Source of the DNA: an uncultured archaeon | GTDB lineage: Archaea > Asgardarchaeota > Lokiarchaeia > Sigyniarchaeales > Promethearchaeaceae | Assembly: GCA_964426185.1 (NCBI GenBank) | Contig: CAYRPF010000010.1 | Location: forward strand, 15,914-47,913 | Length of the DNA stretch: 32,000 nucleotides | Reading direction: 5' to 3' | Notes under the pieces: generated by a model | Seen by the model: only the letters and a program-made list of their open reading frames with translations | Told to the model about the DNA's origin: nothing | The model's database searches: none | Position numbers and translations under genes: made by a program | Shown: in pieces, positions 8,104 to 32,000 of the stretch | Layout of the letters: every line of letters starts with the position of its first letter | Numbering within the stretch: the stretch's first letter is position 1

Positions 8104-10248
8104 TTAATTTTTATTGACAATAACAGCATTACCAGGAGGAATTGTGCGAATTAAATCATTAAGAGAAGTAAGCCTCATCCAAGGCTTAAGATTTTCTTCC
8201 ACTTTTGAAACAAGAATCGAACGAATTTCTTTGGCCAGATCACTTACTTTTTTTCCACTTTTATCTGGTCTTATTTTTACATAGTGAATACCTTTTCGTT
8301 TTAGGGCTGATTCTGGTCCCGATACAACCTGAGGGAAATATTGTAATGCTTGTTCTTCTCCTTTTTGATTAGTAACATGTGAGGATTCTGAAATTTCATT
8401 AAAATCTTCTTCAGATTTAATTGGAATAAAATTTACTCCGATTGTAATTTCAAGGAAGGGTTTTTCGAGAAAATTTTTCCTTCCAGTGATAACAAAAGAT
8501 CCTTTTTTGAGATATTCTCCTGATTTTGGGGTTTTAGAAACTTGATCTGGAAATACATAATAAATATCTGCATTTCCCCATCCTTGTTTCCATGCTGATG
8601 AATAACAAGCAGCAAATTGTCCTGTTTCTTTAATGGTTGTTTCTGGGATTTTCCTATTGTCATCATTTTTAATTAGGCATACCGAAGCACCTCGTACATC
8701 CGTATGAAAAAATAAATCGTTTTTGTTCATATGAGATCGAAATATTTTTTCATTGGAAGAAGCATCTCGGCCTCCTATAATTAAAAAATCATCCGAAGAA
8801 ATAAACCACCTAAATTTTTCATACCATTTTTGTTTTGGGCGTTTTACCAATAATTTTTTTTGAGACTCTACCACCTTATGTTCTTCTTTTTGCTGTTCGA
8901 TTTGTTTTTTAGTTTTTTCTAAAGCTTTTTGGGCACCAATTATCTTCTTTTTGGCTTTTTTGGCTTTGTTATAAATCTCATTTGCATTTTCTATTGCAGA
9001 TTTTTTTAAATCTAATTTAAATTGATGACCTTCTAAATTAATCTGCAATTTAACTTCTTGAGGGAAGATTTGTTCGTAAATTTGGCATTCTGGAATTCCC
9101 ATTTTCTTGCCTTGAAGTAATTTCTGATGAATTTCTTCCCAACTATTATTTTTTTCCCGTTTTTGTCTCATTATAGTTGAAATTAGATTATCGATTTGAG
9201 TTACATATTGAAAAATCAAATGGCCATATTCCAAAGATTTTTTACGAATTTCAGCGGATTCTTCTATTTTTTTTTGTTGTTGAACAAATATTTTCTCTGT
9301 TTTAGATAATTTTACTTTTGATTTTTCGACATCTCCGGAATAAATAAGTTTTGAATCTATTGAAGAAAAAAAGAGATCTACTGCTTCATTAAAGGTTTTT
9401 ACAGGTTGAAACGTTAAATGTGAGAATATTTTCAATTCAAATGGTTCAAATCGAATATTTTTTCCTTCAAAATCCTTTATTAACTGTGGATTAAACGTAT
9501 GATTTTCTAGAATAGAAGATATTTCAAGAATACTTTTATAAAGAAGATTAAAATCAGAGTCTGAAAGTTGAGAAATTTCCTTATCTTTTTTAATTTCTGC
9601 TCTATAACAGATTTCTTCTGCTAAATAGCCCCCAATATTGAATTCTCTCGCTAGAATGCGAACAATTTGTCCAGATTTCTTTTTTACAATCTCTTGAAAT
9701 TGTTCTTCATGTAAATTATTTATGTCTATACCACGCGATTTTGGATAATTATATTCATGTTTTGGAAGAATTTCACGATTTCGATACTTTTTGTAATGTT
9801 CCGCTATTATAACTTGATTAGTATCATTAACTAGGATGAAATTTCCTCCCCCGAAAAATTCAATGATAAATTTCCAAGGTTCTCCATCTTTAGAACCCAA
9901 TTCAAATATTAAAATTCGATCCAAATTGTATTGAGAGATTTTTGTAATTCTACGTCCCTTAATGAACTTTCTTAGAGACATAATAAACTGTGAAGGGAAT
10001 TTAGGAACTGGATAATCAAATTGAGTTAAGTTTATTCTTTGAGAAGTATCTATTATTAATTTTTGGGGTCCTGATTTAGATCTACATTTTAAAAGCAAAA
10101 CTCGGCGTTCAATTTCGATTTCATAAACATTGGTAATAAACCCTTGACAGAGAATTTCATTTAATTCGTATGCAAGAATTGATAGATCAATATTACTGAT
10201 TTCTTTTTTAAAGCTTGAATGGGAATCAAGATTATTACTTCTACTCAT
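8104..10248 (-). CDS. rqcH: Ribosome quality control factor Rqc2/NEMF/RqcH (NFACT family)
   Basis: NFACT-N (LRKFIKG, LDRIL, IEFFGGGNFIL), H2TH, coiled coil, and NFACT-R (WYEKFRWFISSD..GGRDASSNE, FHTDVRGAS, QVSKTPKSGEYL). Confidence 0.93.
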   Translation of the reverse strand: MSRSNNLDSHSSFKKEISNIDLSILAYELNEILCQGFITNVYEIEIERRVLLLKCRSKSGPQKLIIDTSQRINLTQFDYPVPKFPSQFIMSLRKFIKGRRITKISQYNLDRILIFELGSKDGEPWKFIIEFFGGGNFILVNDTNQVIIAEHYKKYRNREILPKHEYNYPKSRGIDINNLHEEQFQEIVKKKSGQIVRILAREFNIGGYLAEEICYRAEIKKDKEISQLSDSDFNLLYKSILEISSILENHTFNPQLIKDFEGKNIRFEPFELKIFSHLTFQPVKTFNEAVDLFFSSIDSKLIYSGDVEKSKVKLSKTEKIFVQQQKKIEESAEIRKKSLEYGHLIFQYVTQIDNLISTIMRQKREKNNSWEEIHQKLLQGKKMGIPECQIYEQIFPQEVKLQINLEGHQFKLDLKKSAIENANEIYNKAKKAKKKIIGAQKALEKTKKQIEQQKEEHKVVESQKKLLVKRPKQKWYEKFRWFISSDDFLIIGGRDASSNEKIFRSHMNKNDLFFHTDVRGASVCLIKNDDNRKIPETTIKETGQFAACYSSAWKQGWGNADIYYVFPDQVSKTPKSGEYLKKGSFVITGRKNFLEKPFLEITIGVNFIPIKSEEDFNEISESSHVTNQKGEEQALQYFPQVVSGPESALKRKGIHYVKIRPDKSGKKVSDLAKEIRSILVSKVEENLKPWMRLTSLNDLIRTIPPGNAVIVNKN

Positions 10249-10319: not shown

Positions 10320-11687
10320 CTAAAACTGCTTTTTAGATTTTTTCACTAACATCGGAAGAATTAAACCAGCAAAAAGCAAACCTTCCCACCCGAATGGAAC
10401 GCTTCTTTTTGTAGCTGTATCATTCGACACTGGAGATGGTCCAGGATTTAATATATCAACTCGATCGATGCCGCGGACACCATCAGCAATATAAAGATAT
10501 TTCCCTTCTACATCAAAATTATAAGCATTTCCCAGTGAATTATAAACCCTAGACGTATTTATATTTGGGGAAAAAGGATTTGTGATATCAATAAAGAAAG
10601 TTCCGTTGTCAGGTGTATTATAAAAGAGAGTATTCTCAAAAATAAACTGATTTTGTCCAGGATTTGCGGTAAAATTATAAGAATTAATTAATTCTGGGGC
10701 AGATGGATTAGAAATATTATACAAAATCAAACCATGATTTGAAGTGGATAGAAAAATTACATCGTTTTTCATTTCGATATCGTTAAAAGTATCATTTGAA
10801 ATTTGAATAGTGTACAAATCAATCGGTGAATTAAAATTTGAAACATTGACAATTTTTAAGGCAGGATTTGATGAAACAGAATAAATTAATAAATCGGAAG
10901 ATAATTTTGCACTTAAAATAGAATTATTTGCTTCCAAATAGACCAAATTACTCGGATTTGCTGGATCTAAACAGTCAATTATGAAAATTCCATCATTCGC
11001 TGTTGCGACAATCATTTTTGATTGATTAAGCAAAAATTTTGTAATAGAGCTATTAATTTCTATTTTACTAATCATATTGATATTTGTGGGGTCAGATACG
11101 TCTAAAATCCGAATTCCATAATTATTATCTACCAAGAAAGCATTTTTTCCTTGTTTCTCTATAAATCGTGCATCTATATTATTTGTATAATATTTGCCTA
11201 GAAGAATTCTAGAATTGTAATTTGAAATATCTAAAACCAACAAACCATTTTGACCATCTGCAACATAAGCGGTATGATCTTCGATTATAATATCATATGT
11301 ATCGGCGGGATTTACAACCTTGTCTTTGTAATCGCCATAAGTAATTATAGTAAAGCATACTGTTGAGATTAGCATAAATGAAAAGAAAAAGGCACCTACT
11401 CCCGTTTTCAATATTTTTTTCCAATCCCATTGTTTTTTCTTATATGGAAGTCTGAAAATTACAAAACTCTGAAGAAATGGCCAAACTAGCATAAATCCTG
11501 CTAAATATAAAAACATCCACCATCCTCGTAAATCAAATACTAATACACCAAATAATGATGACACAACTGCTGTAATTACTTTTACCCAGTAGAATTTTTC
11601 TTCAATTGTTCGTTCTTTAGTTTTTTCTTTCTCTATGGCTTTCTTCTTTTTTTTAACTAAATATTTGGGTTTTCTTTTTCTAACCAT
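10320..11687 (-). CDS. EMC6/Rab5ip-like three-TM domain fused to a seven-blade LVIVD beta-propeller, with C-terminal VPFG-hydrophobic-basic tail
   Basis: Basic N-terminus; TM block FYWVKVITAVV..LRGWW..KILKTGVGAFFFSFMLISTV; seven LVIVD-type repeats; ten N-x-S/T sequons. Likely ATG at 11687. Confidence 0.7.
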   Translation of the reverse strand: MVRKRKPKYLVKKKKKAIEKEKTKERTIEEKFYWVKVITAVVSSLFGVLVFDLRGWWMFLYLAGFMLVWPFLQSFVIFRLPYKKKQWDWKKILKTGVGAFFFSFMLISTVCFTIITYGDYKDKVVNPADTYDIIIEDHTAYVADGQNGLLVLDISNYNSRILLGKYYTNNIDARFIEKQGKNAFLVDNNYGIRILDVSDPTNINMISKIEINSSITKFLLNQSKMIVATANDGIFIIDCLDPANPSNLVYLEANNSILSAKLSSDLLIYSVSSNPALKIVNVSNFNSPIDLYTIQISNDTFNDIEMKNDVIFLSTSNHGLILYNISNPSAPELINSYNFTANPGQNQFIFENTLFYNTPDNGTFFIDITNPFSPNINTSRVYNSLGNAYNFDVEGKYLYIADGVRGIDRVDILNPGPSPVSNDTATKRSVPFGWEGLLFAGLILPMLVKKSKKQF

Positions 11688-11729
11688 AATGTTAATAATA
11701 GAAAATATCAAAAAAATTTTGTTTTTTTA

Positions 11730-12236
11730 TTAAAAACTAGTGCGCAAAATCTCATCTTGGTAAACTATCCGTTCACAATATGTACAAGCAATTTTTAGCG
11801 GATCTTCAGAAATAACTCGAAATTTAGTTTCTACTGGCTCTCGCTCTACATTTGTGATGCACTTTTCATTTGGACATTTAACAATTCCATGAATCATATC
11901 AGGAATTTTTACAACAAATTTTTTTACTACCTTGTAATCTTCAATAAAAGAAACTTTACATCTTGGGGAAATAATCGCAATTTGATGGATTTGTTTTTGA
12001 TCAAGCATTATCTTTTCAACTTTTACGATATCCTTCTTTCCACTTTGGGACGAATTTGATTTGACATTTATCCCTACTGTGATTAGACTGCCATCCTTTC
12101 CTTCTAGTCCAAGAATTTTCATTACAGAAAATGCAAAACCTTCTTTAATGTGATCGATAACGGTTCCACGTTGAATTTTCTCTACATAAAGTCTCTTACC
12201 ATCTTTATCTGAGTTTTCTGAATTCATAATGCTCAA
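11730..12236 (-). CDS. pyrI: Aspartate carbamoyltransferase regulatory subunit
   Basis: LYVEKIQRGTVIDHI, KKDIVKVE, CPNEKCIT and CTYCE zinc site. Confidence 0.96.
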   Translation of the reverse strand: MSIMNSENSDKDGKRLYVEKIQRGTVIDHIKEGFAFSVMKILGLEGKDGSLITVGINVKSNSSQSGKKDIVKVEKIMLDQKQIHQIAIISPRCKVSFIEDYKVVKKFVVKIPDMIHGIVKCPNEKCITNVEREPVETKFRVISEDPLKIACTYCERIVYQDEILRTSF

Positions 12237-12980: not shown

Positions 12981-15900
12981 ATGAAAATTCGAAAATTTGC
13001 TATTATTTTTTTATTGGGCTTAATGCTGATTACTATTCCTGTAAACCTTCAATTACATTCAAATTCTTTTTTGAATACAATAAAAAAAACCTCAAATCTT
13101 AATCAAATCTTTGTTTCTTCGCTAAATATAGAAGAAATGAATAAAGATTCTCATTTATTTTTGAGAGGTGAGTCTTATGAACATTTTTCAGATGATAGCG
13201 GATTTTCAAAGAAAATTTTCATAGTTTTTGATCCTACATTAGATTATAATGATCGAATTTTCTACCTTAAGAAAATTGACAGTAATGTGAAAATAAGATA
13301 TAATTATAAATATATTCCTGTAGTATCGGTGGAATTTTCTCAATCTCCTCATACTTTGTTCAAACAGAATCCGCTGAAATTTTTGAGGATAACAAAAATT
13401 GTTAATCTTCATCAAACTAGGATTGAACGCCCTGAATACTCACGATTATTTTTTTCAGACGAACAAAAGAATAATTCTTCATCAAACATGGAAAATTGGT
13501 GGTTAAATTCAATTGATGCTGCTGATGTCCAATATACCGGTAAAGGAGTAAAAATTGCCATTATAGATACAGGTATTTCTGTTCATCCAGATTTTTTCTC
13601 AAATGGGAACAGTCGTATTATTGCAAGTAAGAATTTTACTAGTGAAGCGGGAGTTACTCAAAATCAATATTACTTCGATGATTATGGTCATGGGACTCAT
13701 GTTGCTGGGATTGCAGCTGGTAACGGATTTTTATCCGATGGAAAATATAGAGGAGTTGCCTCACAAGCGCTGTTATATAATGCTAAAATATCAAATTCGA
13801 CTGGATTTATTGAAGAAGATGATGTGGTTGCTGCGATTGAATGGTGCATTGACGAACAAGTTGATATTATCAGTATGAGTTTTGGAGATACTATTCCTGA
13901 AGTTTGGACAATTCAAACTATGGCAATTCAACAAGCAGTAGAACATGGAATTGTAGCCTTTGCATCGGCTGGGAATAGCGGTCCTGGTTTTTTTACTTCA
14001 GGGACTCCGGCAAGTGGACTTTTTTCCATCGCGGTAGGAGCAACAGATGAGAATAATCAAGTTGCTCAATTTAGCAGTTGGGGTCCGACTTATTCTAATC
14101 AATTAAATCCTGAAATTTGTGCCCCTGGAGTAAACATTATAGCACCTCTTTCTAAAAGTTCAATTTTAGATTTAGAAATGAATATTAGAGAAAATAAAAT
14201 TGATTATTCTTCAAATTTTGGTTACATACCTTTATCTGGAACGAGTATGGCATGTCCTATAGCTGCTGGAGCTGCTGCTCTATTGATAGAAGCATATCCT
14301 AATGCTTCTCCTGAAACCATAAGAAATGCACTTATTGAGGGTGCAAAAGAGATTAATTCAGGGATTTTAGAAGGAAAAATGGTTAGAGCCGGAGCAGGGC
14401 TCATTAATATAAGTAAATCTCTGCAAATCTTAGAAGAATGGAGTACAAATTCTGATGGTGTGAATGATAATATTCGAATTTTCCCTAATATTTTCCCTTA
14501 TGCTCCTTATGATTTTTTTAATTATCCAGGGGATCAAATTATTCTAAATTATACATTGATAAAGGGTTCTTCGGCTACTATAAAGATAGAATTACCCAAT
14601 ATTCCAGGAATTGAGTTTCAGATTGTTTCTAACAATTCTTTTACATATGAGAAAAAGATTGTGAATGTTCCAATTTATGCCCGTATATTATATAATGCAA
14701 CTCCAGGGTATTATTCGGGGAATATTTTAGTAAAAAATGCAATTACCGGGACTTTACTTGACCAGATTGAGTCTAATATTATTATAAAAACTCCAAAAGC
14801 AAAAGTCTATTTCGATTCTTATCACGGTTTAAATGATTTCTACCCCAGTAACTTTTCTACATTTTCCCAAATTGACCTCTATCATTTATTTAGTCTTTTA
14901 AACTCACAAAATTATCAAGTAGCATTTAATATGGAGCATTGGACGCCTTTCTACAATGCTTCGCTAAATTCTCCTATTCTTACCAGTGAAATTTTGAGTA
15001 ACATTGATATACTTGTGCTCCAAGCGCCAATTATTCCATACAATCGATATGAAATTCAAGAAATAACCAATTTTTATAACGAAGGGGGTTCAATTTTATT
15101 TCTCGGAACAGTTAATAATCTTTTATGCACAGATTCACTAAACGCTTTGTTTGACTCATTAAACACTAATATAAAATTTGGGGAAAATTTAGTTAACCTT
15201 AGAAATTTCGGTTATTTTTCACAAGCGATTCCCTTTAATAATTTAACTCTAAACGAGGAGGTTCCTCTCTTAACTAATATTTCTGAATTTTATTATTCCT
15301 TTGGAACTTCTTTCGTTAATCAAACACCAGTAATTCCTTTAATCTCTGTAGATGGTAAAATAGTCGCAATGGACGCAAGTTTTAATAGATCTACTGGGAA
15401 ATTCCTTTTATTCGGCGATTATCATTTTCTAACTACCTCTGTATTCACATCAGAGAGACTTTATACAAATCTCTCTGCTTTTGCTACAAATATCTTCGAC
15501 TATCTACGTCCTTCAGATAAGATTCGAATTGATCTCTCTTATAATCACCAATATACTGTAAATACTACAAAAATTCCCATTAAACTTCAAATTCTTGATC
15601 AAATTTCCAAAGAACTCTATTCAAACTTCGCAATTGGCTCGGCTCTTAACATGTCTCTTCTTTTTCCTAATGGCACCGTAAAAAATTTGGATGTGATTGA
15701 AAATTCTAAATTGAAGGCTTATTTTTCGTCAATTCCGCTAAATAATTTAAATTTCAGCAGATATCCACTTATTTTGACAGTTAATTTACAAATTAATGAA
15801 ACAATTTATTCAGATACCTTTAAATTTATTCATGAAGTCTCAGATTTGATTTCTCCTTATAAAATAAGTAGCTTAGACGAGAAATTAGATCGATTAGAAC

Positions 15901-16775
15901 CAGGACCTTCAATATTTGCTATAAATACTTCAGAAACGGACATTTTTAGATCAATAAACGCCATTATTTTCCCAAATTCATATTTTTCTATTAATAATCT
16001 TGAAATTTTGGAAACTAATTTATCTTCTTTTGAAAATTACTCAATAATTTCTTATGAATTTACTAGCAGAAATCCTGCAGGAGAAATCATTTTCACCCCA
16101 AACGATCTCTCTAATCAATCTATTAATAGAATTGATTTGTATCCATCTCGTATCTCTTTTTCATTAATTGATTATTTACCAGAAGTAAAAGAAACATCAT
16201 CTTTCATTGGATCTAATCCATTCACAGAATATCAAAATGGCGATTACATCATACCCGTACAAATTTTGGTTAACCAAGAAATTCCTCTTCAAGTTTCAAT
16301 TGTTGATTATGATGATAATCCAGTAGATCGAAACAAATTCAAATTAAGTTGTTCCTTAATACCAGGCATAATTTATCATAACTTTTTCAATCCGATATTT
16401 CCTCAGAAAATATGGTATTTTAACTTAAATTATAATACTACCAGTCAATTTTATGAAGGAAATATTGTGATTCCTGCAGAATTTCAATTCTCTGGTTTTT
16501 CTGGATCTGTGAAATATTCCAGTGAATCTGATTTCTTGAATTTCTATACATTGGCATTAATATCCGTAATCGATCCGAGTGGTGGGTCTAATTTTTATCC
16601 ATTACTCTTTATGCCTTATGAAAAACCGATCCATCTTTTTAATTTAACTCCAATTTTCATGCTATATGGATTGATTGCGTTATCAATCGTCTTTATAGAA
16701 AAAGGCTCAAAATGGAAGCAAAAAATAAGATTTCACAGAATTTCCCACAATCTTGTAAGCAAAAAAAAATTTTAA
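12981..16775 (+). CDS. Membrane-anchored S8 (subtilisin-family) serine protease with downstream GATase-like/DUF4350-type domain
   Basis: Signal peptide and prodomain; triad IIDTG, HGTHVAG, GTSMACP; oxyanion AGNSG; later KVYFDSYH..DILVL..GGSILFLG..GKFLLFGD; C-terminal TM and basic tail. Confidence 0.92.
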   Translation: MKIRKFAIIFLLGLMLITIPVNLQLHSNSFLNTIKKTSNLNQIFVSSLNIEEMNKDSHLFLRGESYEHFSDDSGFSKKIFIVFDPTLDYNDRIFYLKKIDSNVKIRYNYKYIPVVSVEFSQSPHTLFKQNPLKFLRITKIVNLHQTRIERPEYSRLFFSDEQKNNSSSNMENWWLNSIDAADVQYTGKGVKIAIIDTGISVHPDFFSNGNSRIIASKNFTSEAGVTQNQYYFDDYGHGTHVAGIAAGNGFLSDGKYRGVASQALLYNAKISNSTGFIEEDDVVAAIEWCIDEQVDIISMSFGDTIPEVWTIQTMAIQQAVEHGIVAFASAGNSGPGFFTSGTPASGLFSIAVGATDENNQVAQFSSWGPTYSNQLNPEICAPGVNIIAPLSKSSILDLEMNIRENKIDYSSNFGYIPLSGTSMACPIAAGAAALLIEAYPNASPETIRNALIEGAKEINSGILEGKMVRAGAGLINISKSLQILEEWSTNSDGVNDNIRIFPNIFPYAPYDFFNYPGDQIILNYTLIKGSSATIKIELPNIPGIEFQIVSNNSFTYEKKIVNVPIYARILYNATPGYYSGNILVKNAITGTLLDQIESNIIIKTPKAKVYFDSYHGLNDFYPSNFSTFSQIDLYHLFSLLNSQNYQVAFNMEHWTPFYNASLNSPILTSEILSNIDILVLQAPIIPYNRYEIQEITNFYNEGGSILFLGTVNNLLCTDSLNALFDSLNTNIKFGENLVNLRNFGYFSQAIPFNNLTLNEEVPLLTNISEFYYSFGTSFVNQTPVIPLISVDGKIVAMDASFNRSTGKFLLFGDYHFLTTSVFTSERLYTNLSAFATNIFDYLRPSDKIRIDLSYNHQYTVNTTKIPIKLQILDQISKELYSNFAIGSALNMSLLFPNGTVKNLDVIENSKLKAYFSSIPLNNLNFSRYPLILTVNLQINETIYSDTFKFIHEVSDLISPYKISSLDEKLDRLEPGPSIFAINTSETDIFRSINAIIFPNSYFSINNLEILETNLSSFENYSIISYEFTSRNPAGEIIFTPNDLSNQSINRIDLYPSRISFSLIDYLPEVKETSSFIGSNPFTEYQNGDYIIPVQILVNQEIPLQVSIVDYDDNPVDRNKFKLSCSLIPGIIYHNFFNPIFPQKIWYFNLNYNTTSQFYEGNIVIPAEFQFSGFSGSVKYSSESDFLNFYTLALISVIDPSGGSNFYPLLFMPYEKPIHLFNLTPIFMLYGLIALSIVFIEKGSKWKQKIRFHRISHNLVSKKKF

Positions 16776-22743: not shown

Positions 22744-23010
22744 ATGGCAGATAATTATTACGCGATAATTAAAAAGCCTCTGGTAACTGAAAACACTTTT
22801 GATTTAATTGAAGATCAAAATAAAATCGTTTTTATCGTTGACCGTAAAGCAAATAAGTATCAGATCAAAAAAGCTATTGAAAAATTGTATGACGTTCAAG
22901 TTATTAAAGTCAATACATTAATTAATACTAAAGGAAGCAAAAAAGCATTTGTAAAACTCCATCCAAACTATTCTGCTGCAGATTTAGCAATAAAGCTTGG
23001 AATCTTTTAA
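22744..23010 (+). CDS. rpl23: 50S ribosomal protein uL23
   Basis: [31 protein letters not shown]. Confidence 0.98.
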
Positions 23011-23011
23011 G

Positions 23012-23047
23012 TTTCTTTTTTTTTCAATTCTTTCTTTTCTTTATTTC
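23012..23047 (+). terminator. T-rich archaeal-type terminator after rpl23
   Basis: Oligo-T tracts immediately after the stop codon, between convergent genes. Confidence 0.55.
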
Positions 23048-23127
23048 GTTCTAATGGGCAATCTACTAAACTTAGGTCAAATAGTCTGGTCTCTATCTAA
23101 CAGTAGAGAAACGACAAGAAATCTTTA

Positions 23128-24630
23128 TTAAAAAAAATTTGAAAAGATCAACATTTTTACTACTAATGAAATCACCAAAAAAGATCCTAAAAATAACAGA
23201 TCCACTTTTTTAAGAATTTTTCCAGAAACCATGGTATTAAAAGAAAATAAAGTTATAATTAAAAAATAAAGAGGAAGAATTAAAAAATACCATAAATCAT
23301 AAGTTTGTCCTATAAGTGGGGTATTACTTGAGAAATAATTGAAAATATGCATGTAATTTGAAAATATTACATGAAAAGCATACACAAAGGGGCTTAAAAT
23401 ACTTAAATTGATCATCGATACTAATTTGAAAATTAAAGATTTACTTCGTATTTCGTTTTGTATGAGTTCTTTTTGTTTCTTAATTTTTTCATGTTTGATC
23501 AAGATGTCCTTAAAGGATTTGAAGAAATCTTGTCCTTGTGTGCAATTTATTTTTAAGATCTGAGAAAATGCTTCTATAATGATGAAAATACTCTTGTTTT
23601 TGGTTCTCTCTTTTAGAATATGAAAAAAAGCGTCAATTGGATTAAAACTTCCAATTATTAGATCTCTAATATCTTTAATAGGTTTATTTGATGATTTTTG
23701 GAGAGAATTTAGAAGAGCTAATGGAGGAGAAAAGAATTGTAATTCGTAACTAAATAATTCAAAGAAATCAATAACTTCATTCAATCCAATGTTCTTTGAA
23801 TTTTTGCTTTTAATATAAATTAAAGGAAAAGAACTCTTCCATCTTTTAATTAAAAAGAAAAGCAACATCGTGAAGGATAAAATAATGAAAATAATATCTA
23901 AAATTGACTGAAAATAAAAAAGATTGACAGAAAAGAAAACAATTGGGAAAAAAAGGGTTAGAAAAACTAATATTTCTAAGTGAGTCTTAAATTTTGGCAA
24001 ATTAAATTCAAATTTATTCAACGTTTTTTCATCGAATTGAGAAATTAAGGAATTATTCAGATCATTTCGCTCAAGAATATAGCAGAATAAATCTTTAAAT
24101 TCTTTTGAATAAAACTGAATTTCTTGCAAATTTTTGGTAATATTACCCCCACGAAAAATATTTTGAATTTTCTCTTTAATATTTATACCTAAACTTGGAT
24201 TCTGAAAAAATATCTCAAAAATATATTGAAATGTATTAATTTGCCCAGAAAATGTTTTAGAAAAAAGTGACAAATTCAACAATATAAACCGATAGTTATC
24301 CATATTTTCATATTTTCGTTTTTGGATTTCTACATATAAGAAATTGTGAAGAAATGAGCCTAAAATAAAGATAATAATTAAAGAAAAAAATAAAAATCCC
24401 GTAATTTTAATTAATAAAATATAAACAAAGAAAAAAAGGATGAAGATTAAGCAAAATATAAGTAAGTTAAATTTTTGAATCTGAAATTGGGAAATTCCAA
24501 AAATAATTTCTACATCTCTCCATTTTTTTTCCCTTTTACGAAATAGAATTGGTGTAGATTTAAACATCAAACATGATTTAATATAGTATTTGAGAAGGAG
24601 ATCATTCAAATGAAAATAAATTTCAATCAC
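23128..24630 (-). CDS. Divergent TadC/GspF(PilC/ArlJ)-like pilus platform membrane protein
   Basis: TM pairs alternate with two helical soluble domains (e.g. IDFFELFSYEL..SPPLALL). It lies downstream of the secretion ATPase. The call relies partly on context and the start is uncertain. Confidence 0.6.
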   Translation of the reverse strand: MIEIYFHLNDLLLKYYIKSCLMFKSTPILFRKREKKWRDVEIIFGISQFQIQKFNLLIFCLIFILFFFVYILLIKITGFLFFSLIIIFILGSFLHNFLYVEIQKRKYENMDNYRFILLNLSLFSKTFSGQINTFQYIFEIFFQNPSLGINIKEKIQNIFRGGNITKNLQEIQFYSKEFKDLFCYILERNDLNNSLISQFDEKTLNKFEFNLPKFKTHLEILVFLTLFFPIVFFSVNLFYFQSILDIIFIILSFTMLLFFLIKRWKSSFPLIYIKSKNSKNIGLNEVIDFFELFSYELQFFSPPLALLNSLQKSSNKPIKDIRDLIIGSFNPIDAFFHILKERTKNKSIFIIIEAFSQILKINCTQGQDFFKSFKDILIKHEKIKKQKELIQNEIRSKSLIFKLVSMINLSILSPFVYAFHVIFSNYMHIFNYFSSNTPLIGQTYDLWYFLILPLYFLIITLFSFNTMVSGKILKKVDLLFLGSFLVISLVVKMLIFSNFF

Positions 24631-25059
24631 CTATTTAAAATGAATGTAGCCTATTGAATTACTAATTCCTGCTGTGTAGGTTGTTACAGAATTATTCAAC
24701 CCATAAATTTTTGTATTTTTCGATATTTTGAATACATATTTTTGGAATAAACTGAAATTTTCAATATAAAAAAAAAAGGTAATTTCTAGATACTTCTTTT
24801 CAAAATATCCTTCAATTGTCCCATATTGGCAAAAACTAAGTTGTACCGTCTCATTAAATTCAGAATTTATTGATGAATTTTCAATTCTATTCAAATTTTC
24901 TTCCAATTTAGAAGAGTCTTCCTTAACACTTTTTTCCCAGAAATCGTTTAATTGAAATTCAGGTAGTAAATAGTCTAAAGGAAAAAAAAACGGCAAAAAC
25001 ATTAAATTAAGAAGCAATCCAAAAGATATAATTAAGTATTTTTCAAGAATTTCACTCAT
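24631..25059 (-). CDS. Hypothetical N-terminally anchored protein in the pilus operon
   Basis: ATG at 25059 is 4 nt after the ATPase stop. Single N-terminal hydrophobic helix; its stop abuts the next gene. Confidence 0.55.
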   Translation of the reverse strand: MSEILEKYLIISFGLLLNLMFLPFFFPLDYLLPEFQLNDFWEKSVKEDSSKLEENLNRIENSSINSEFNETVQLSFCQYGTIEGYFEKKYLEITFFFYIENFSLFQKYVFKISKNTKIYGLNNSVTTYTAGISNSIGYIHFK

Positions 25060-25063
25060 TTCG

Positions 25064-27097
25064 TTATATTTCAGAAATAAAAGTATTAATATTCCGATAT
25101 AACTGGTCAATTTGAAAAAAATTAAATTTTTTATTATTATTAAGTTCAATGATAACCTCTTTAATTTTATCTAAAATTGATTGTAGTTGATTTCTTTTTA
25201 AGATAAAGATATTTTTATATTTATTATCTAAAAATTCTTGGATTTGTAACGCATTTTTTTTCCATCTGTGCTCTTGAAAATCAAAATTAAATAGTTTTAA
25301 TATCTTTATTTCTTTCAAAACAGGAATGTAAACAATCTGGTAAATCGAGTGAATAAATCGTTGATGATTAGTTCTTTTCATTAATATAATGATCCCTAAA
25401 TCATTCAAGCATGATTGGTTAATATTGTAATGAAAAATCCATCTGTTTATTAATCCATTAATTGAAGAGGCATGCGTTGTTTGAAGTCCTTTTAATCCAG
25501 CACTAAGACAGTGAAACATTGCATGTGTTTCTAAATTGCTTAAAATCTCACCAAGAATAATGAAATCACCTGAACGATGTAGTAATTTATAAATCTGTTT
25601 TTGTTTAGAATCTTTTTCTAAAGCTTCTGGTTTCACTATATATTTCAATTGATGAGATAAATTATTGATTTTACCTAAGGTTTCAATATTTTCTTCCACA
25701 TAAATTTTCCTAAAATGAGAAGGGGCATACATATCAATTGCATTGAGTAATGTCGTTTTTCCAGAATTTACTTCTCCCACAATGGTTATATTTATTCTAA
25801 AATAAACTGAAAACAAGATAAAGCTAGCAATTTCAATATTTAAGGTCTTTAAATTAACTAGATCTAAAAGTGTTAAAGTTTTTTTTTTCAAATTCCGAAT
25901 ATCAATAGCTATATTTTTCCAATGTGATGGATAAATATCTACACTAAATCTCGCGTAAAAATACTTTGATTGAAAAACATGCATAACATTTGGATGTTCT
26001 AAATCTAATCTCTTTTTACTTTCCAAACACACATAAGTCTTGATTGCTTCAATTTCTACATTAGAAAGCATTAGATCACTTTCTAATCTACCGTAACGTT
26101 GATGGTTAATATATAATGGAGTTTCAATTTCATCTATAAAAATTTCTTCAATCATTTCATCTTGAAGAAAGATAAAAATTTTCTCAAATTTTAAATATCT
26201 CAGCATTAAAATTAATGAAACTTTCTTTCGATCTTCACTAGTAAGTGAATTATAATATCCTGCTAAGTAATGAAAGAATTTACACGAAATATCATTGATT
26301 CGTTCAGATAAATTGGAAGAAATTAAAAAGTCAGATTTTCGGACTTTAAGAGAAACAAATTCAAGGATTTGATCTAATTTTGATAAAACATCTGATCTTA
26401 AATTTATTTCATAACGGATTTTTTTACAATGAATATTATTTTCATATATAATGATGTCGATTAAATCTTGAAAAACTTGATACCTTGTAATTAGTTTCTC
26501 TTGATTATTTGGAATAATTCTGCTTTTTATTGGCATGCTTTGAGTTAAATTTACGAATATTTTCTTCAGAGTATTAATATTCCAAGAGAGAATGGCATAG
26601 CTTATCCTAAGGTATTGTGAGATTTTTGATTTGTACTTTAATTTTTCAAATCCACTTAATATTTTTTGATTTTTTTTTTCATTTCTGTTCATTTTTTTAT
26701 TTGAATTATCACTTAATTCCGAATGATAATCCAAAATTTCATAGAATCGTATGATAGAAAAAGGTTCTTTGAAAAAAGTATTACTTAAGATTTTTTTACT
26801 ACTTCTACTTAGTTTCTTTCTTTTCTTACTATATTTCTTTTGAAATGATATATATAATTCTCTTAGTAGAGAGAGTACATTTATTTCTTCTTTTGATAGT
26901 ACTTGATTAAAAGGGCATACCACTTCTTCGATAATTTTGTCTTTGTGTTTTATAAAATAACTGAAGATACAATCAAAACAATCAGAATGATCACAATTTT
27001 TGAACCTTGAAGATAAATTTGGCAACAGTTTGTAAGATAAAGACTTGGTTGTTTGATTTGGTGATATTACAACTTGAAAGATATCCATAATCTTCAA
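25064..27097 (-). CDS. Type II/IV secretion (TadA/CpaF/VirB11-family) pilus assembly ATPase
   Basis: DEMIEEIFID, IDIR, Walker A GEVNSGKTT, Asp box YVEENIE, Walker B HRSGDFIILGEI, His box TTHA. Confidence 0.9.
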   Translation of the reverse strand: MKIMDIFQVVISPNQTTKSLSYKLLPNLSSRFKNCDHSDCFDCIFSYFIKHKDKIIEEVVCPFNQVLSKEEINVLSLLRELYISFQKKYSKKRKKLSRSSKKILSNTFFKEPFSIIRFYEILDYHSELSDNSNKKMNRNEKKNQKILSGFEKLKYKSKISQYLRISYAILSWNINTLKKIFVNLTQSMPIKSRIIPNNQEKLITRYQVFQDLIDIIIYENNIHCKKIRYEINLRSDVLSKLDQILEFVSLKVRKSDFLISSNLSERINDISCKFFHYLAGYYNSLTSEDRKKVSLILMLRYLKFEKIFIFLQDEMIEEIFIDEIETPLYINHQRYGRLESDLMLSNVEIEAIKTYVCLESKKRLDLEHPNVMHVFQSKYFYARFSVDIYPSHWKNIAIDIRNLKKKTLTLLDLVNLKTLNIEIASFILFSVYFRINITIVGEVNSGKTTLLNAIDMYAPSHFRKIYVEENIETLGKINNLSHQLKYIVKPEALEKDSKQKQIYKLLHRSGDFIILGEILSNLETHAMFHCLSAGLKGLQTTHASSINGLINRWIFHYNINQSCLNDLGIIILMKRTNHQRFIHSIYQIVYIPVLKEIKILKLFNFDFQEHRWKKNALQIQEFLDNKYKNIFILKRNQLQSILDKIKEVIIELNNNKKFNFFQIDQLYRNINTFISEI

Positions 27098-27125
27098 ATT
27101 TCGTGCACCTTAATAAAAAACGACA

Positions 27126-27611
27126 TTAAAATGCCAAAGAAAAAAAAATAGAGAAAAGAAAAAAAGGTGCCAGTGGGGTTTTATCTTCTTTTTTCTTTCC
27201 AAAAAAAATTTTGTAGAAACAAATAGAAAGAAGAAAGAAGAAAAAAAAAGCAAATAAATCTGGAAACTCAATTAAGAAAAAAGCACCACTCAATGACAAA
27301 TTATGGTTAAATACAGGATTTACTAAAATAAGAAGAGTTATTTTAATATCAGCTCCCCCTAACTGCTCTTTTTTATATAATTGGAGAAATATAAGACTGA
27401 TCAACACTTTGGTTAAAAAAATATCAAATTGCCAAACCCAATTGCCTAAAAAGAAAGAAACTATTGAAATCAATAAAATCATAATAAAAGCTTCAAAAAC
27501 TAATATCGAATCAATTTTCTGAAATAAAATATCTTCCAAACTAAAAAGAAAATAGAAAAACAGACTCATAAAATATAAAAGAATAACAATATATCCATTA
27601 TTCATAATCAT
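27126..27611 (-). CDS. Short prepilin peptidase (A24, TadV/CpaA-like)
   Basis: Polytopic membrane protein with both catalytic Asp motifs (SLEDI and LGGADIK) and a C-terminal PLAPF. Confidence 0.8.
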   Translation of the reverse strand: MIMNNGYIVILLYFMSLFFYFLFSLEDILFQKIDSILVFEAFIMILLISIVSFFLGNWVWQFDIFLTKVLISLIFLQLYKKEQLGGADIKITLLILVNPVFNHNLSLSGAFFLIEFPDLFAFFFFFLLSICFYKIFFGKKKEDKTPLAPFFLFSIFFSLAF

Positions 27612-27900
27612 CCCAAAATTCTATAAGGTTCTTAATTGCACGAGCTCGTATATTTTCATCACAAAACCTATAGATTTTAATTCGACCAAAACACTTTTCT
27701 TCTACAATCTTTGCTTTTATTAGTAATTCTAAATGTTTTTTTACGCTATTATGGTTTAAACCGGACATTTTTACAATATATGAGATATTTGTTTCATGAG
27801 AAAAAACTAAGATTTTAATTATTTTTGTTCTTCCTTTAGAAGCAAAAATATCTTCAATATTGTATGAATTTTCTTTAATTATACTTTGCATAATGTTCAC
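27598..27900 (-). CDS. Winged helix-turn-helix (ArsR-like) protein
   Basis: FASKGRTKIIKIL..NISYIVKMSGLNHNSVKKHLELL..VEEKCFGRIKIY. Confidence 0.85.
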   Translation of the reverse strand: MNIMQSIIKENSYNIEDIFASKGRTKIIKILVFSHETNISYIVKMSGLNHNSVKKHLELLIKAKIVEEKCFGRIKIYRFCDENIRARAIKNLIEFWDDYE

Positions 27901-29127
27901 TTATACCTTTGAATTAAAATCACGAATTTTATGATTTAGTCTTTCATGAATTGCATGGATAGGTAGATCAGCATTTGAAATTATCGATTTCCTTCCTTTG
28001 ATGTTTTTCGAAACGACATTTGCTTTAACTAATCCAAAATGTGAAAAATGTTGCAAGTAAATCCATAATTGTGTATTTTTCCTTGGTTTTTTTTGCAAAT
28101 TGTCGCATATTTTTTCATAATGTTGTTTTAAATCTTTAAAAAGAAGATTTTGTTCACCTGTGTTAATCATTAAATCCATTATTGAAAATAGAAACAATAT
28201 TTCATTGAAAGATAAAGAACCAATTAAATCGACATATGAATTTGGAATAGTATTACTTAAGGCGACATCTATCTCTTCCTTTGAAACATTTTTCAATTCT
28301 TTTGATTCAGCAATCTTTACGGCATTTCTTATGATGTTTAATCCTTTTCTAACATCGCCTGAATCATCAATTTCACTCACAATATATTCAAGTGAATCTT
28401 TCGAAAACACACCAGGCTTTATGGCAGTTTTAATCCGGGCTGAGAGAATATCAAATAATTGTTCTTTGGTATATTTTTTCAAGGTTATTACATTCCCTTG
28501 CAGTGTACTTTTTGTAGAATCATCCAAATTTCCTAATAATATTAAATTTCTAACGATAACTATTAAAGAAATATAGTTTTTTCGATCAAAATTCGATTCA
28601 TTAAGGCGAGAAAGGCTGTATATTAAATTGAAATGGGTCATTCGTAAATAATTCAGTTCATCTAAGGTTAAAATCAAGTAAATTTCAGATTTAATTAAGT
28701 AATCTTCTAAAAATAATATAAGTTCTTGAACAGAATAACCCCTAATTGGAATGCTACAATTCAAACATGAAAGAATACGATTAAGGATGTTATTTGGGGT
28801 TTTTTCTTTTCGACAATTAATATGAATATATTTTATATTTAAATTTCTCTTCATTGATGACATTAAAACCATTTTTCCAAACGTTTTTGCAATAACGGTT
28901 TTTCCAATACCAATTTCTCCTTGAATTGTAACTTTTCGAGATATCAAAAATGGTTTTTCCAATAATTTTACGAATATTTTAGAGAGTAATATTAATTCTT
29001 CTTCGCGATGAAGTAAAATATCAGGAATATAATTGATTTCTAAGTGTTCTTCATGTAAGAATAAAGTATTTAGCAAATATTGCTCTTCCAGATAGTTAAT
29101 ATCCGAGTTTTGTTCCATAATTATCAA
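27901..29127 (-). CDS. cdc6: Orc1/Cdc6 family AAA+ ATPase (Orc1-2/Cdc6-2-like)
   Basis: YIPDILLHREEE, Walker A GEIGIGKT, INC, Walker B LDEL, Y..QL.DIL..R, GDVR, and a C-terminal wHTH PRKNTQLWIYL..IKGRKS. Confidence 0.92.
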   Translation of the reverse strand: MIIMEQNSDINYLEEQYLLNTLFLHEEHLEINYIPDILLHREEELILLSKIFVKLLEKPFLISRKVTIQGEIGIGKTVIAKTFGKMVLMSSMKRNLNIKYIHINCRKEKTPNNILNRILSCLNCSIPIRGYSVQELILFLEDYLIKSEIYLILTLDELNYLRMTHFNLIYSLSRLNESNFDRKNYISLIVIVRNLILLGNLDDSTKSTLQGNVITLKKYTKEQLFDILSARIKTAIKPGVFSKDSLEYIVSEIDDSGDVRKGLNIIRNAVKIAESKELKNVSKEEIDVALSNTIPNSYVDLIGSLSFNEILFLFSIMDLMINTGEQNLLFKDLKQHYEKICDNLQKKPRKNTQLWIYLQHFSHFGLVKANVVSKNIKGRKSIISNADLPIHAIHERLNHKIRDFNSKV

Positions 29128-29179
29128 TACATCTTAAATTGTCGGTATTAAATTAAAGAGAAAAAGAATGAAGATTTTC

Positions 29180-29392
29180 TTATTTATTATAAAAATCTTC
29201 GAAAAAGGATAAAACTGAACTAAATTGATCTTCAATCCATCCGTAGATATTTGTTACAATCCCAATTAAAATTAAAAACAAAATTAATGAAAGGGCAATA
29301 AGTAATCCAGTTTCAAGCATCGAACTGCCAGAATTATCTCTTAATAGTTTTTTCCAAAACTTTTCTTGTTTATTATCAATTTTTCTAAACAT
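29180..29392 (-). CDS. Flp-like type IV pilin (class III signal peptide)
   Basis: Basic 22-aa leader ending ..LLRDNSG|SSMLETGLLIAL.., with Glu at +5 and a hydrophobic helix; 48-aa mature protein. Confidence 0.8.
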   Translation of the reverse strand: MFRKIDNKQEKFWKKLLRDNSGSSMLETGLLIALSLILFLILIGIVTNIYGWIEDQFSSVLSFFEDFYNK

Positions 29393-29760
29393 AATCCTTA
29401 ATTTCTCTAAATAATAAAAATTCCGAAATTTTAATAAATACGTTTCATTGTGATATTTGTTTAGGATTTAAAGATTTACGTTGTTTTTTAACAATGAGGA
29501 ACCTCGCTTCTTGCTCTTGACCGAGGATTTTTAAATAGATGAAAATCTAATCTTAGAATAGAAACGTCTTCGATGTCAGGGATTTTGATGATTTATCAAA
29601 TGAAAACCTGAAATTGAATTGAAACGACTAAGAACCTCGAAGAAAGGGAAAAAAAGCATTAAATTTGTCAAGAATTTGCTTTGAGTATCCCGAATAGTTG
29701 GATATCTTAGTATTATATTCACATAATACACAAAAAAGCGGGTATTAAATCCATAAACAT

Positions 29761-32000
29761 CTATATTAATATTTTTTTTCCCATTCTCTTTTTTGGGCGG
29801 AATTTTATTATATTTTGCTTTTTCAAAAAACTAAATGAGCCTATTATAAATAAAACCCCAAGAGTGCTTGTTAGATAGGGTTTTATCTTATCCAAATTAT
29901 AATAAACATGAAAAATTATTGCAATTTCATCATATTCATTATTTAAATCTCGAATTTTAAGTGTAATATTTAAATCAATATTATAATCATTAATAAATAC
30001 AATAATTTCTGATTTATTTATGGAATAAATAACTTGATCAACTAACCAAATAATGGTAGCTGGAAGATTACCCAAATCTCCAATAAAAATAAATTTTACA
30101 TAAGTTTGACTTACAATTTTTGAAACATTTGATGTAAAAGATGCATTAGGCATAAGATTTGGAAATACTTCTATAAATCTATTAATAATTAAAAAATCTT
30201 GATCTCCATCTATATCAAACACATTTAAAGAAACTGAATAATTTCCTTGAGTTAAATAGCGATGTACGGGATTTTTTTCCGTTGAATTATTTCCATCTCC
30301 GAAATCCCATATCATTTTTTGCAATCCATTTCCTTCAAATCCAGTAAAGAAAAATAAAATATCCTGGGTTTCTACAGTTAATGAAGAATTTGTGGAAAAA
30401 CTGGCAATTGGAAGTAGATCAGGGTTTACTTGTATCATACAAGTCGTGATATTTTGTTCATCTCCATCCCAATCAATAATTATCAAAGATGCTTGAAATA
30501 TTCCTGGGTCCAAGTAACGGTGTATAGGTGAAATATCACTTGAATTACTTCCATCTCCAAAATCCCAAAAGAAAGTACTTGGATGATTTCCATAATTACC
30601 AATAGGTGAAAATTCAATATACTCTCCTTGAATGCATATTGAATTATTTACTCTAATTGAAACATTGGGAAAATAATCTTCATTAATAAAAAACGAAATA
30701 TTTGTTAGAAATACATCTAAATCAAAATCTACAATTGTTAGAGTTAAATTGACAACACCTGACGAATTAAAAGAATAAGAGAATGTCTCTTGATAAAGAA
30801 ATATTCCATTCCCTAAATCCCAGCAGTAGGAAATGGGTAAATTTCCAGTAACATTTAATGCTTGAAAAGATATAGAGTAATTTCTTATCAATTTGGATGT
30901 ATTTATATGAATATATCCACTCGGATGTAGATCTTCAGAAACACAAAGTGGAACTGAATTTAAATATTGATCTTTATCAGAATTTTGATCAATTACTGTT
31001 AATGTAATTGAAAAATTCCCTGGAAATTTATATATATGTGATGGAGTCCTTTCTGTGGAATTTTTTCCATCTCCAAAGTCCCAAAAAAAGCAATTTTTTC
31101 CATTACCTTCCAAACCATTGAATTGGAAATCCACAGATTGTCCCGCAACTATATTATTTTTGCTTATATTATAAGATGCTTGTGGAATAAGATTCTGTTC
31201 TATTGATATTGTTTTGGTTGTTGAAAAACAATCGCCATCGTGATCAGTAATCAACAAAGTAACATTGAATATACCAGGATATTCATAAATATTACTCGGT
31301 GAATCTTCTTGAGTAAAATTTCCATCTCCAAAATCCCAAAAAACTAAGTATGGTGAATTTCCAAAACACCCAGAGAAATTAAAAAGAACTAAATCACCAG
31401 TATAAAAAGTAATATTTTCATAAGAAATATTGCCATTTGGAAGAAAATCGATTGATATATTTAATACTTTTAATATTTGCGATTCTTGCATGTCTTGATC
31501 TCTAATTTTTAACTTTACATTTATCATTCCCGGTTCTGAATAGATATGGATTGGATTTCTTTCACTGGAATTAGTTCCATCTCCAAAGTCCCAAAAGAAA
31601 ACTGTTGGATTATTTCCTAGTTGTCCCGTAAAATTGAATTGTATCTCCTGACTCATAAATAAAAATGGAGAACTGATTGAGAAATTTGCTATTGGATAAA
31701 GATCCATTTCAATATTTACAAGCATATAGTGAATTGAAGTATCATTATCTTTGTCTATGACAGTTAAACTAATATTGTGGATTCCTATTTGTTGAAAGAA
31801 ATGAACGGGGTTAATATCAGATGAATTTGTTCCATCTCCGAAGTCCCAAAAGAAAACTGTTGGATTATTTCCTAGTTGTCCCGTAAAATTGAATTGTATC
31901 TCCTGACTCATAAATAAAAATGGAGAACTGATTGAGAAATTTGCTATTGGATAAAGATCCATTTCAATATTTACAAGCATATAGTGAATTGAAGTATCAT
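29761..32000 (-). CDS. Partial (5'-truncated) PKD-repeat surface protein with C-terminal TM anchor
   Basis: About eight 85-aa units, six with WDFGDG, one WDLGNG and one degenerate. C-terminal TM and basic tail. The frame stays open to the window edge. Confidence 0.9.
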   Translation of the reverse strand, partial: DTSIHYMLVNIEMDLYPIANFSISSPFLFMSQEIQFNFTGQLGNNPTVFFWDFGDGTNSSDINPVHFFQQIGIHNISLTVIDKDNDTSIHYMLVNIEMDLYPIANFSISSPFLFMSQEIQFNFTGQLGNNPTVFFWDFGDGTNSSERNPIHIYSEPGMINVKLKIRDQDMQESQILKVLNISIDFLPNGNISYENITFYTGDLVLFNFSGCFGNSPYLVFWDFGDGNFTQEDSPSNIYEYPGIFNVTLLITDHDGDCFSTTKTISIEQNLIPQASYNISKNNIVAGQSVDFQFNGLEGNGKNCFFWDFGDGKNSTERTPSHIYKFPGNFSITLTVIDQNSDKDQYLNSVPLCVSEDLHPSGYIHINTSKLIRNYSISFQALNVTGNLPISYCWDLGNGIFLYQETFSYSFNSSGVVNLTLTIVDFDLDVFLTNISFFINEDYFPNVSIRVNNSICIQGEYIEFSPIGNYGNHPSTFFWDFGDGSNSSDISPIHRYLDPGIFQASLIIIDWDGDEQNITTCMIQVNPDLLPIASFSTNSSLTVETQDILFFFTGFEGNGLQKMIWDFGDGNNSTEKNPVHRYLTQGNYSVSLNVFDIDGDQDFLIINRFIEVFPNLMPNASFTSNVSKIVSQTYVKFIFIGDLGNLPATIIWLVDQVIYSINKSEIIVFINDYNIDLNITLKIRDLNNEYDEIAIIFHVYYNLDKIKPYLTSTLGVLFIIGSFSFLKKQNIIKFRPKKRMGKKILI
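31574..32000 (-). repeat. Intragenic tandem repeat: 31574-31745 vs 31829-32000 (period 255 nt, 1 mismatch in 172 nt)
   Basis: Manual alignment; the only difference is 31585 a vs 31840 g. Confidence 0.95.

Follow-up and report, generated by a model that had tools for sequence, protein, structure and literature searches.

The window analyzed in this study is a 32,000-nucleotide (nt) stretch of contig CAYRPF010000010.1 (positions 15,914 to 47,913) in assembly GCA_964426185.1 of an uncultured archaeon of the Promethearchaeaceae (Lokiarchaeia; Sigyniarchaeales). Its minus strand carries an open reading frame (ORF, 10320–11711) whose preferred start is the ATG at 11687. This start was chosen because the orthologues, all of which open with MV(R/K)KRKPKY, begin there, and it gives a protein of 455 amino acid residues (Table 1). 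The name given to the protein in databases, "LVIVD repeat-containing protein", is corrected here, as it hides an N-terminal EMC6-like domain with three transmembrane (TM) helices. The endoplasmic reticulum (ER) insertases EMC3 and TMCO1 have EMC6 and OPTI, respectively, as obligate partners. Our results indicate that the gene is likely the EMC6-like orthologue of its lineage, encoding the three-helix partner of a YidC/DUF106 (Oxa1-superfamily) insertase, to which a module of propeller, stalk and fourth TM helix was added on the outside. A sequence-only reading of the window had quoted the TM block and assigned it to EMC6/OPTI by eye; both the ORF and the block were found as written.

A search of 1.84 billion representative sequences with a profile of the three-TM domain retrieved 29 relatives, comprising fused forms and stand-alone proteins of about 100–160 residues from Promethearchaeota/Lokiarchaeia. 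Two of the stand-alone ones touched EMC6 or EMC6_arch at an E-value of about 1e-3, and scores of 19.5–20 bits, below the Pfam cut-offs, were reached among the relatives. Within a 30-member alignment of the domain family (profile A3), 11 of 30 members matched Pfam EMC6 (best E-value 8e-4), more than matched any other Pfam family. When A3 was compared with 177,635 distinct PDB sequences, the sole match at E < 1 was OPTI (7tut chain 9; E-value 1.7e-4, 25 bits), and the next match had an E-value of 3.8. The alignment with OPTI ran end to end, from query positions 7–94 to chain residues 43–128. The motifs common to the domain and OPTI were YW at TM1, G at the turn between TM1 and TM2, and K-x-G...F-x-x-F-M...T in TM3.

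Similar results were obtained with the predicted structure of the domain, whose predicted local distance difference test (pLDDT) score was 90.3. Among 350,542 Foldseek candidates, OPTI ranked first (probability 1.00, TM-score 0.66, root-mean-square deviation [rmsd] 2.6 Å, 30% identity, E-value only 0.027) and human EMC6 second. In an exhaustive VIA alignment against 48,161 PDB representatives, just three chains reached a Z-score of at least 8, namely OPTI (11.3), human EMC6 (10.6) and yeast EMC6 (10.5), and the next chain scored 7.4. Moreover, one Rab5ip/EMC6 and one EMC6_arch cluster were among the Atlas structural neighbours of the domain. When the N-terminal block was scanned as a single sequence, Pfam and NCBIfam gave matches only at noise level (holin, Cornichon and HgcAB-like), and an Atlas search by protein-language features returned no usable match. 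The profile search, the two structure comparisons and the Atlas neighbours support the three-TM domain as a divergent member of the EMC6/OPTI superfamily that lies below Pfam's own threshold, and they uphold the assignment made by eye.

Separately, a Bathyarchaeota cluster in the Atlas (224 members of about 178 residues, with PKD domains in all) superposes on the three-TM domain (TM-score 0.73; query residues 24–125), and may represent a second, independent addition of an ectodomain to an EMC6-like protein.

No fewer than 20 independent protein clusters and assemblies, among them two closed genomes and one single-contig metagenome-assembled genome (MAG), contained the full-length fusion, and the full-length orthologues, from many assemblies, were 36–72% identical. 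For instance, the fused gene is present on the single 4.36-Mb contig of Ca. Harpocratesius repetitus FW102, in Ca. Lokiarchaeum ossiferum B35 (complete chromosome; WP_371801982) and, according to a family-level search, in the single-contig genome of Promethearchaeum syntrophicum MK-D1 (WP_147661819). The idea that assembly, a frameshift or gene calling joined two separate genes finds some footing in two MAGs, which are exceptions. In one of the genus Lokiarchaeum (G212/L079, contig C268), the fused frame breaks after 193 residues, and in the other (G213, L081/L084) the gene is split over two contig ends. The former break is a frameshift or assembly error; tblastn follows the protein on to residue 433. 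Against such an artefact, the frame is uninterrupted over 455–502 residues in the two closed genomes, the single-contig MAG and many MAGs, and the linker between the two modules is conserved. Moreover, contigs of two different studies, spanning 10881–11520 and 11011–11575 of the window, bridge the junction near nt 11312 with zero differences. The closed genomes and the bridging contigs refute this explanation, to which we assign virtually no probability. The fusion does recur across Lokiarchaeia, a point that the sequence-only reading had proposed to check, but only within part of one family, and most of the Asgard genomes searched have the domain as a small stand-alone protein.

The domain was identified in 81 of the 201 sampled genomes of the phylum, nearly always in a single copy and, again in nearly all cases, encoded by a small stand-alone ORF. 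In the family of the window's genome, four genera have the fused form and two the stand-alone form, and the fused proteins of the four genera are only about 31–39% identical. Every copy examined from the sister family was stand-alone and ended right after TM3. The stand-alone relatives, which are ~110–150 residues long in sister lineages, possess even longer K/R-rich N-terminal tails, and the stand-alone Asgard forms matched the domain profile at E-values of 1e-33 to 1e-37. A tree of the domain, based on 98 columns, was too poorly resolved for counting gains and losses of the propeller and separated just the stand-alone clade of the sister family. When longer proteins were searched by words for further fused forms, LVIVD fusions alone were returned, which is weak evidence that there are no others.

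In the window's own genome (92% complete), the domain profile matched only the fused gene, and a six-frame search with Pfam EMC6 and EMC6_arch yielded no credible match (best E-value 0.05). The fused gene was also the only domain match in the genomes of L. ossiferum, Ca. Harpocratesius and P. syntrophicum. In nearly all loci examined from two families of the order, the gene, fused or stand-alone, occupies a slot between the genes for PyrI and NFACT/Rqc2; in the sister family, this middle gene is inverted relative to its neighbours. Because of this common slot and the single copy, the fused gene is regarded as orthologous by position to the usual EMC6-like gene of Asgard archaea and not as an extra paralogue. 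The linkage of an insertase-partner gene to a ribosome-quality-control gene is striking, and may be mere synteny.

The C-terminal module matched LVIVD (PF08309) at 64.5 bits in a Pfam scan (cut-off 20.2; E-value 5e-18). In an AlphaFold2 model based on 12 orthologues, it formed seven four-stranded blades with a pLDDT of about 90, in keeping with the seven repeats counted earlier, and was followed by a stalk with low pLDDT and no secondary structure. Its PDB matches in Foldseek, at E-values of about 1e-12, were generic propellers (beta-TrCP, designed propellers, WD40 and BamB). The C-terminal hydrophobic stretch and basic tail, which had likewise been pointed out, read FGWEGLLFAGLILPMLVKKSKKQF. 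Alignment of the orthologues showed that the G-W of this stretch at TM4, the NPA motif of the linker, and blades 1 and 7 are invariant, and so is WDWK within the K-rich loop of the three-TM domain. Among the fused proteins, mean pairwise identities were 71% for the three-TM domain, 35% for the propeller and 32% for TM4. Thus, the three-TM domain is the most constrained part of the fused protein, far above the propeller. The FGW-TM-basic C-terminus was also considered as a PGF-CTERM-like sorting signal common to other proteins of the genome, and this was rejected, as it is no general signal there.

The protein possesses exactly ten N-glycosylation sequons (N-x-S/T), as had been counted, at residues 212–422; all are in the ectodomain and none is in the first 125 residues. 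Shuffled ectodomains contained 6.1 ± 2.1 sequons. In 12 of 12 orthologues, the sequon count was above the mean of the protein's own shuffles, by about 1.4 to 3.2 standard deviations, and several sequon columns were conserved among them. Lysine and arginine residues number 15 in the first 34 residues (the N-terminal tail), 7 in the loop between TM2 and TM3, and 4 in the C-terminal tail; the ectodomain is net acidic. A topology with the N-terminus inside, the propeller outside and the C-terminus inside is therefore predicted, as it fits the positive-inside rule and the distribution of sequons, and the N-in/C-out orientation put forward in the sequence-only reading is consistent with both.

With regard to the partner of the three-TM domain, a survey with HHpred found exactly one EMC6-like protein per archaeal proteome, placed that of Lokiarchaeum closest to C20orf24/OPTI, and predicted MJ0480 and MJ0606 as a pair (Lewis and Hegde, 2021; PMC8675477). 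By homology, the three-TM domain is expected to sit on an insertase, like its counterparts in EMC3-EMC6, in TMCO1-OPTI and in that predicted pair. A DUF106/EMC3_TMCO1 gene (PF01956, 64 bits; L001:1432–2097, contig C6) is directly downstream of the SecY gene, and a second, divergent DUF106 paralogue (30 bits; L002:1450–2118, contig C100) adjoins an ABC ATPase gene. Both paralogues occur widely in the order, although each genome has only one EMC6-like gene. The possibility that the second paralogue tracks the fusion was rejected, as it is widespread in both families regardless of fusion state.

Complex prediction with the SecY-adjacent DUF106 protein gave a score of 0.32 vs 0.00 in all three controls. 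In the DUF106 runs, contact agreement was at least 86% and the pLDDT of the partner at least 65. In the calibration of this test, 58 of 80 solved complexes pass the mark, as do 2 of 110 mismatched pairs; only 7 of the 80 score 0.60 or under, a range that also holds both passing mismatches. The score, which the solved structures of EMC3-EMC6 and TMCO1-OPTI may inflate through model memory, is no more than slightly favourable to the interface with a DUF106 protein that had been suggested earlier: it exceeds the controls, and the tool grades the support as weak.

As for the origin of the propeller, the fused gene is the sole LVIVD gene of its genome, and related genomes have many. A recurrent class among the relatives, of about 340–390 residues, consists of a signal peptide, an LVIVD propeller, a TM helix and a basic tail (L091–L095; G162, G071, G117, G210 and G189). 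These type-I proteins match the propeller profile at 100–125 bits and occur in genomes whose EMC6-like gene is stand-alone. Similar to the fusion, they continue from the propeller into a TM helix and a basic tail; different from the fusion, they open with a signal peptide where the fusion has its EMC6-like domain, the invariant FGW is missing from their TM helix, and none is found in the window's genome. They are thus possible donors of the fused module or possible counterparts acting in trans. The added module came most likely from such a type-I membrane LVIVD propeller protein: its gene would have been joined to the 3' end of an EMC6-like gene, with TM3 taking over from the signal peptide as a signal anchor.

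If the protein is indeed an EMC6-like insertase partner with an added outer module, its three-TM domain would still dock on the DUF106 insertase, by analogy with EMC6 on EMC3 and OPTI on TMCO1, and its polybasic N-terminal tail would face the cytoplasm and the ribosome. Because the three-TM domain would dock on the insertase, the propeller would be held at the trans side of the insertion site, where TM3 and TM4 would tether it directly over the outer (trans) face. We infer that the propeller might function there as an accessory holdase or as a docking platform for newly exposed segments or other surface-biogenesis factors. Such a role would be analogous, not homologous, to that of the lumenal propellers of EMC1 or the periplasmic P1 domain of bacterial YidC. 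That the propeller is accessory is shown by its absence from the orthologues of other lineages.

Several observations weigh against this interpretation. The single sequence scored only 10.7 bits against Pfam EMC6 (PF07019; E-value 0.76, cut-off 23.3, aligned over 4–79 of 81 positions) and did not match EMC6_arch (PF19094, cut-off 26.7 bits), and a profile of the 12 fusion proteins alone failed to retrieve OPTI or EMC6 from PDB (best match eL22, E-value 0.26), so that OPTI was reached only with the broader 30-member profile. With two DUF106 paralogues for one EMC6-like gene, either could be the partner, and binding to DUF106, as predicted, is weakly supported. Sub-threshold Pfam matches of this kind, together with the Foldseek E-value, would also be expected if the three-TM domain were a convergent small helical bundle whose matches reflected hydrophobic composition and a common three-helix arrangement; the notes of the alignment tool warn that helical bundles can reach Z-scores of about 13 by arrangement alone, a range that includes the values of 10–11 found here. 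However, three independent methods ranked the same family first among all their candidates, the alignment covers the whole domain with motifs in common, and intermediate sequences bridge it to EMC6 and EMC6_arch. Moreover, the HHpred study independently tied the Lokiarchaeum protein to EMC6 and C20orf24 (PMC8675477). Convergence is therefore considered very improbable.

The propeller is also absent from the orthologues in two genera of its own family and in all of the sister family; hence, the core role does not require it, and it could serve a function that has nothing to do with insertion. In that case, the gene would encode a cell-surface LVIVD protein (an adhesin, a ligand-binding or an envelope-associated protein) that is anchored by EMC6-like helices, in which the EMC6-like domain retains the function of its ancestors and its fusion to the propeller is functionally incidental. 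LVIVD propellers are typical of archaeal and bacterial surfaces and abundant in the relatives, both in type-I and in multidomain surface proteins, the propeller evolves fast, and no similarity to EMC1 was found with Pfam or among the top 50 Foldseek matches. This explanation is unlikely. The fusion has stayed intact across four genera despite their low identity and is always the sole EMC6-like copy, and an independent surface protein needs no second anchor tied to an insertase subunit. Moreover, the invariant residues of the linker, blades 1 and 7 and TM4 suggest a fixed geometry of the propeller relative to the three-TM domain. We favour an EMC6-like orthologue that retains its place on the insertase and carries the propeller as an accessory.

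A bolder proposal is that an archaeal insertase holo-complex has the propeller and TM4 as a working subunit on its trans side, equivalent in function to EMC1 and of lokiarchaeial origin. Rosetta-stone logic would then predict that, in sister lineages, the separate type-I LVIVD proteins bind in trans to the stand-alone EMC6-like/DUF106 pair. This proposal is quite doubtful. If true, multi-subunit EMC-like insertases with an outer propeller would have existed among the closest cultured relatives of eukaryotes. How many-subunit eukaryotic complexes grew from a simple archaeal pair of YidC-like and EMC6-like proteins is an open question that this gene touches. Both cultured Asgard species have no EMC6-like gene other than the fusion, which makes the composition of the insertase complex in Asgard archaea accessible to experiment.

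The features of the locus are listed in Table 1. Elsewhere in the window, the plus strand encodes at 12981–16775 an S8 subtilase of 1264 residues with a long C-terminal extension, a C-terminal TM helix and a basic tail; it is conserved beside the locus in Harpocratesius and L. ossiferum. The G+C content of positions 23001–30000 is 0.24–0.27, vs about 0.30–0.35 in the flanks.

Table 1. Positions in the window of the fused gene, the parts of its product and the two neighbouring genes.
Feature	Residues	Positions	Strand	Remarks
Whole gene		10320–11687	−	455-residue protein; stop codon 10320–10322
Polybasic cytoplasmic N-terminal tail	1–30	11598–11687	−	Start codon ATG 11685–11687; MVRKRKPKY start common to orthologues
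EMC6/OPTI-like three-TM domain	31–117	11337–11597	−	Profile and structure matches; TM1 35–53, TM2 56–78, K-rich cytoplasmic loop 79–94, TM3 95–117
Linker	118–129	11301–11336	−	Module junction; invariant N-P-A at entry of blade 1
Seven-bladed LVIVD beta-propeller	130–412	10452–11300	−	Extracellular (predicted); 9 of 10 sequons
Pro-rich stalk	413–431	10395–10451	−	Invariant P415 and P419; one sequon (N422)
Fourth TM helix and basic cytoplasmic tail KKSKKQF	432–455	10323–10394	−	Invariant G433-W434 at outer end
Upstream neighbour, PyrI (aspartate carbamoyltransferase regulatory chain)		11730–12236	−	Pfam; synteny; slot marker
Downstream neighbour, NFACT/Rqc2-type protein		8104–10248	−	Pfam NFACT_N and NFACT-R_1; synteny; slot marker

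Asgard EMC6-like proteins have already been published (PMC8675477), also as a Lokiarchaeia EMC6 structural cluster in a 2026 preprint (PMC13734099). The archaeal EMC6-like proteins described so far (Lokiarch_50810, MJ0606, EMC6_arch PF19094 and the cluster of PMC13734099) belong to the same family as the window protein and are present in one copy per genome. However, they have been treated as small stand-alone proteins, whereas the window protein is fused. A fusion with a propeller or LVIVD is not mentioned in the searched text of PMC8675477 and PMC13734099, and no description of the fused layout was found in the literature; Lokiarch_50810 (KKK40543.1) may itself be a fused form.

Among proteins of solved structure, OPTI (also C20orf24 or RAB5IF) is both the best profile match and the best structural match of the window protein, with an rmsd of 2.4 Å over 93 residues and 20–30% identity. 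Similar to the window protein, it has three TM helices in N-in/C-out orientation. Different from the window protein, OPTI is a stand-alone protein of about 130 residues that ends just after TM3, whereas in the window protein TM3 is followed by a propeller of 283 residues, the stalk and TM4; the partner of OPTI is TMCO1, whereas the putative partner of the window protein is an archaeal DUF106 protein. EMC6 shares the fold, with about 12% identity to the window protein in the structural alignment. It has no ectodomain, and in EMC the separate subunit EMC1 supplies the lumenal propellers and a C-terminal TM helix.

Similar to the C-terminal module of the window protein, EMC1 presents a propeller on the trans side, followed by a TM helix and a short basic cytoplasmic tail, and the module of the window protein would have an EMC6-type subunit next to it. 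The propellers of EMC1 are two in number and PQQ-like, in contrast to the single propeller of seven LVIVD blades in the window protein. No EMC1-related Pfam family matched the window protein at E ≤ 10, and EMC1 was absent among the 50 best Foldseek matches of the propeller. The parallel with EMC1 is thus an analogy of layout, as the sequence-only reading had itself proposed, and no homology was found. The domain order of the fused protein is nevertheless the one that EMC6 and EMC1 jointly supply in eukaryotes and, even as an analogy, it shows that the C-out end of the partner subunit acquired a trans-side module in this lineage.

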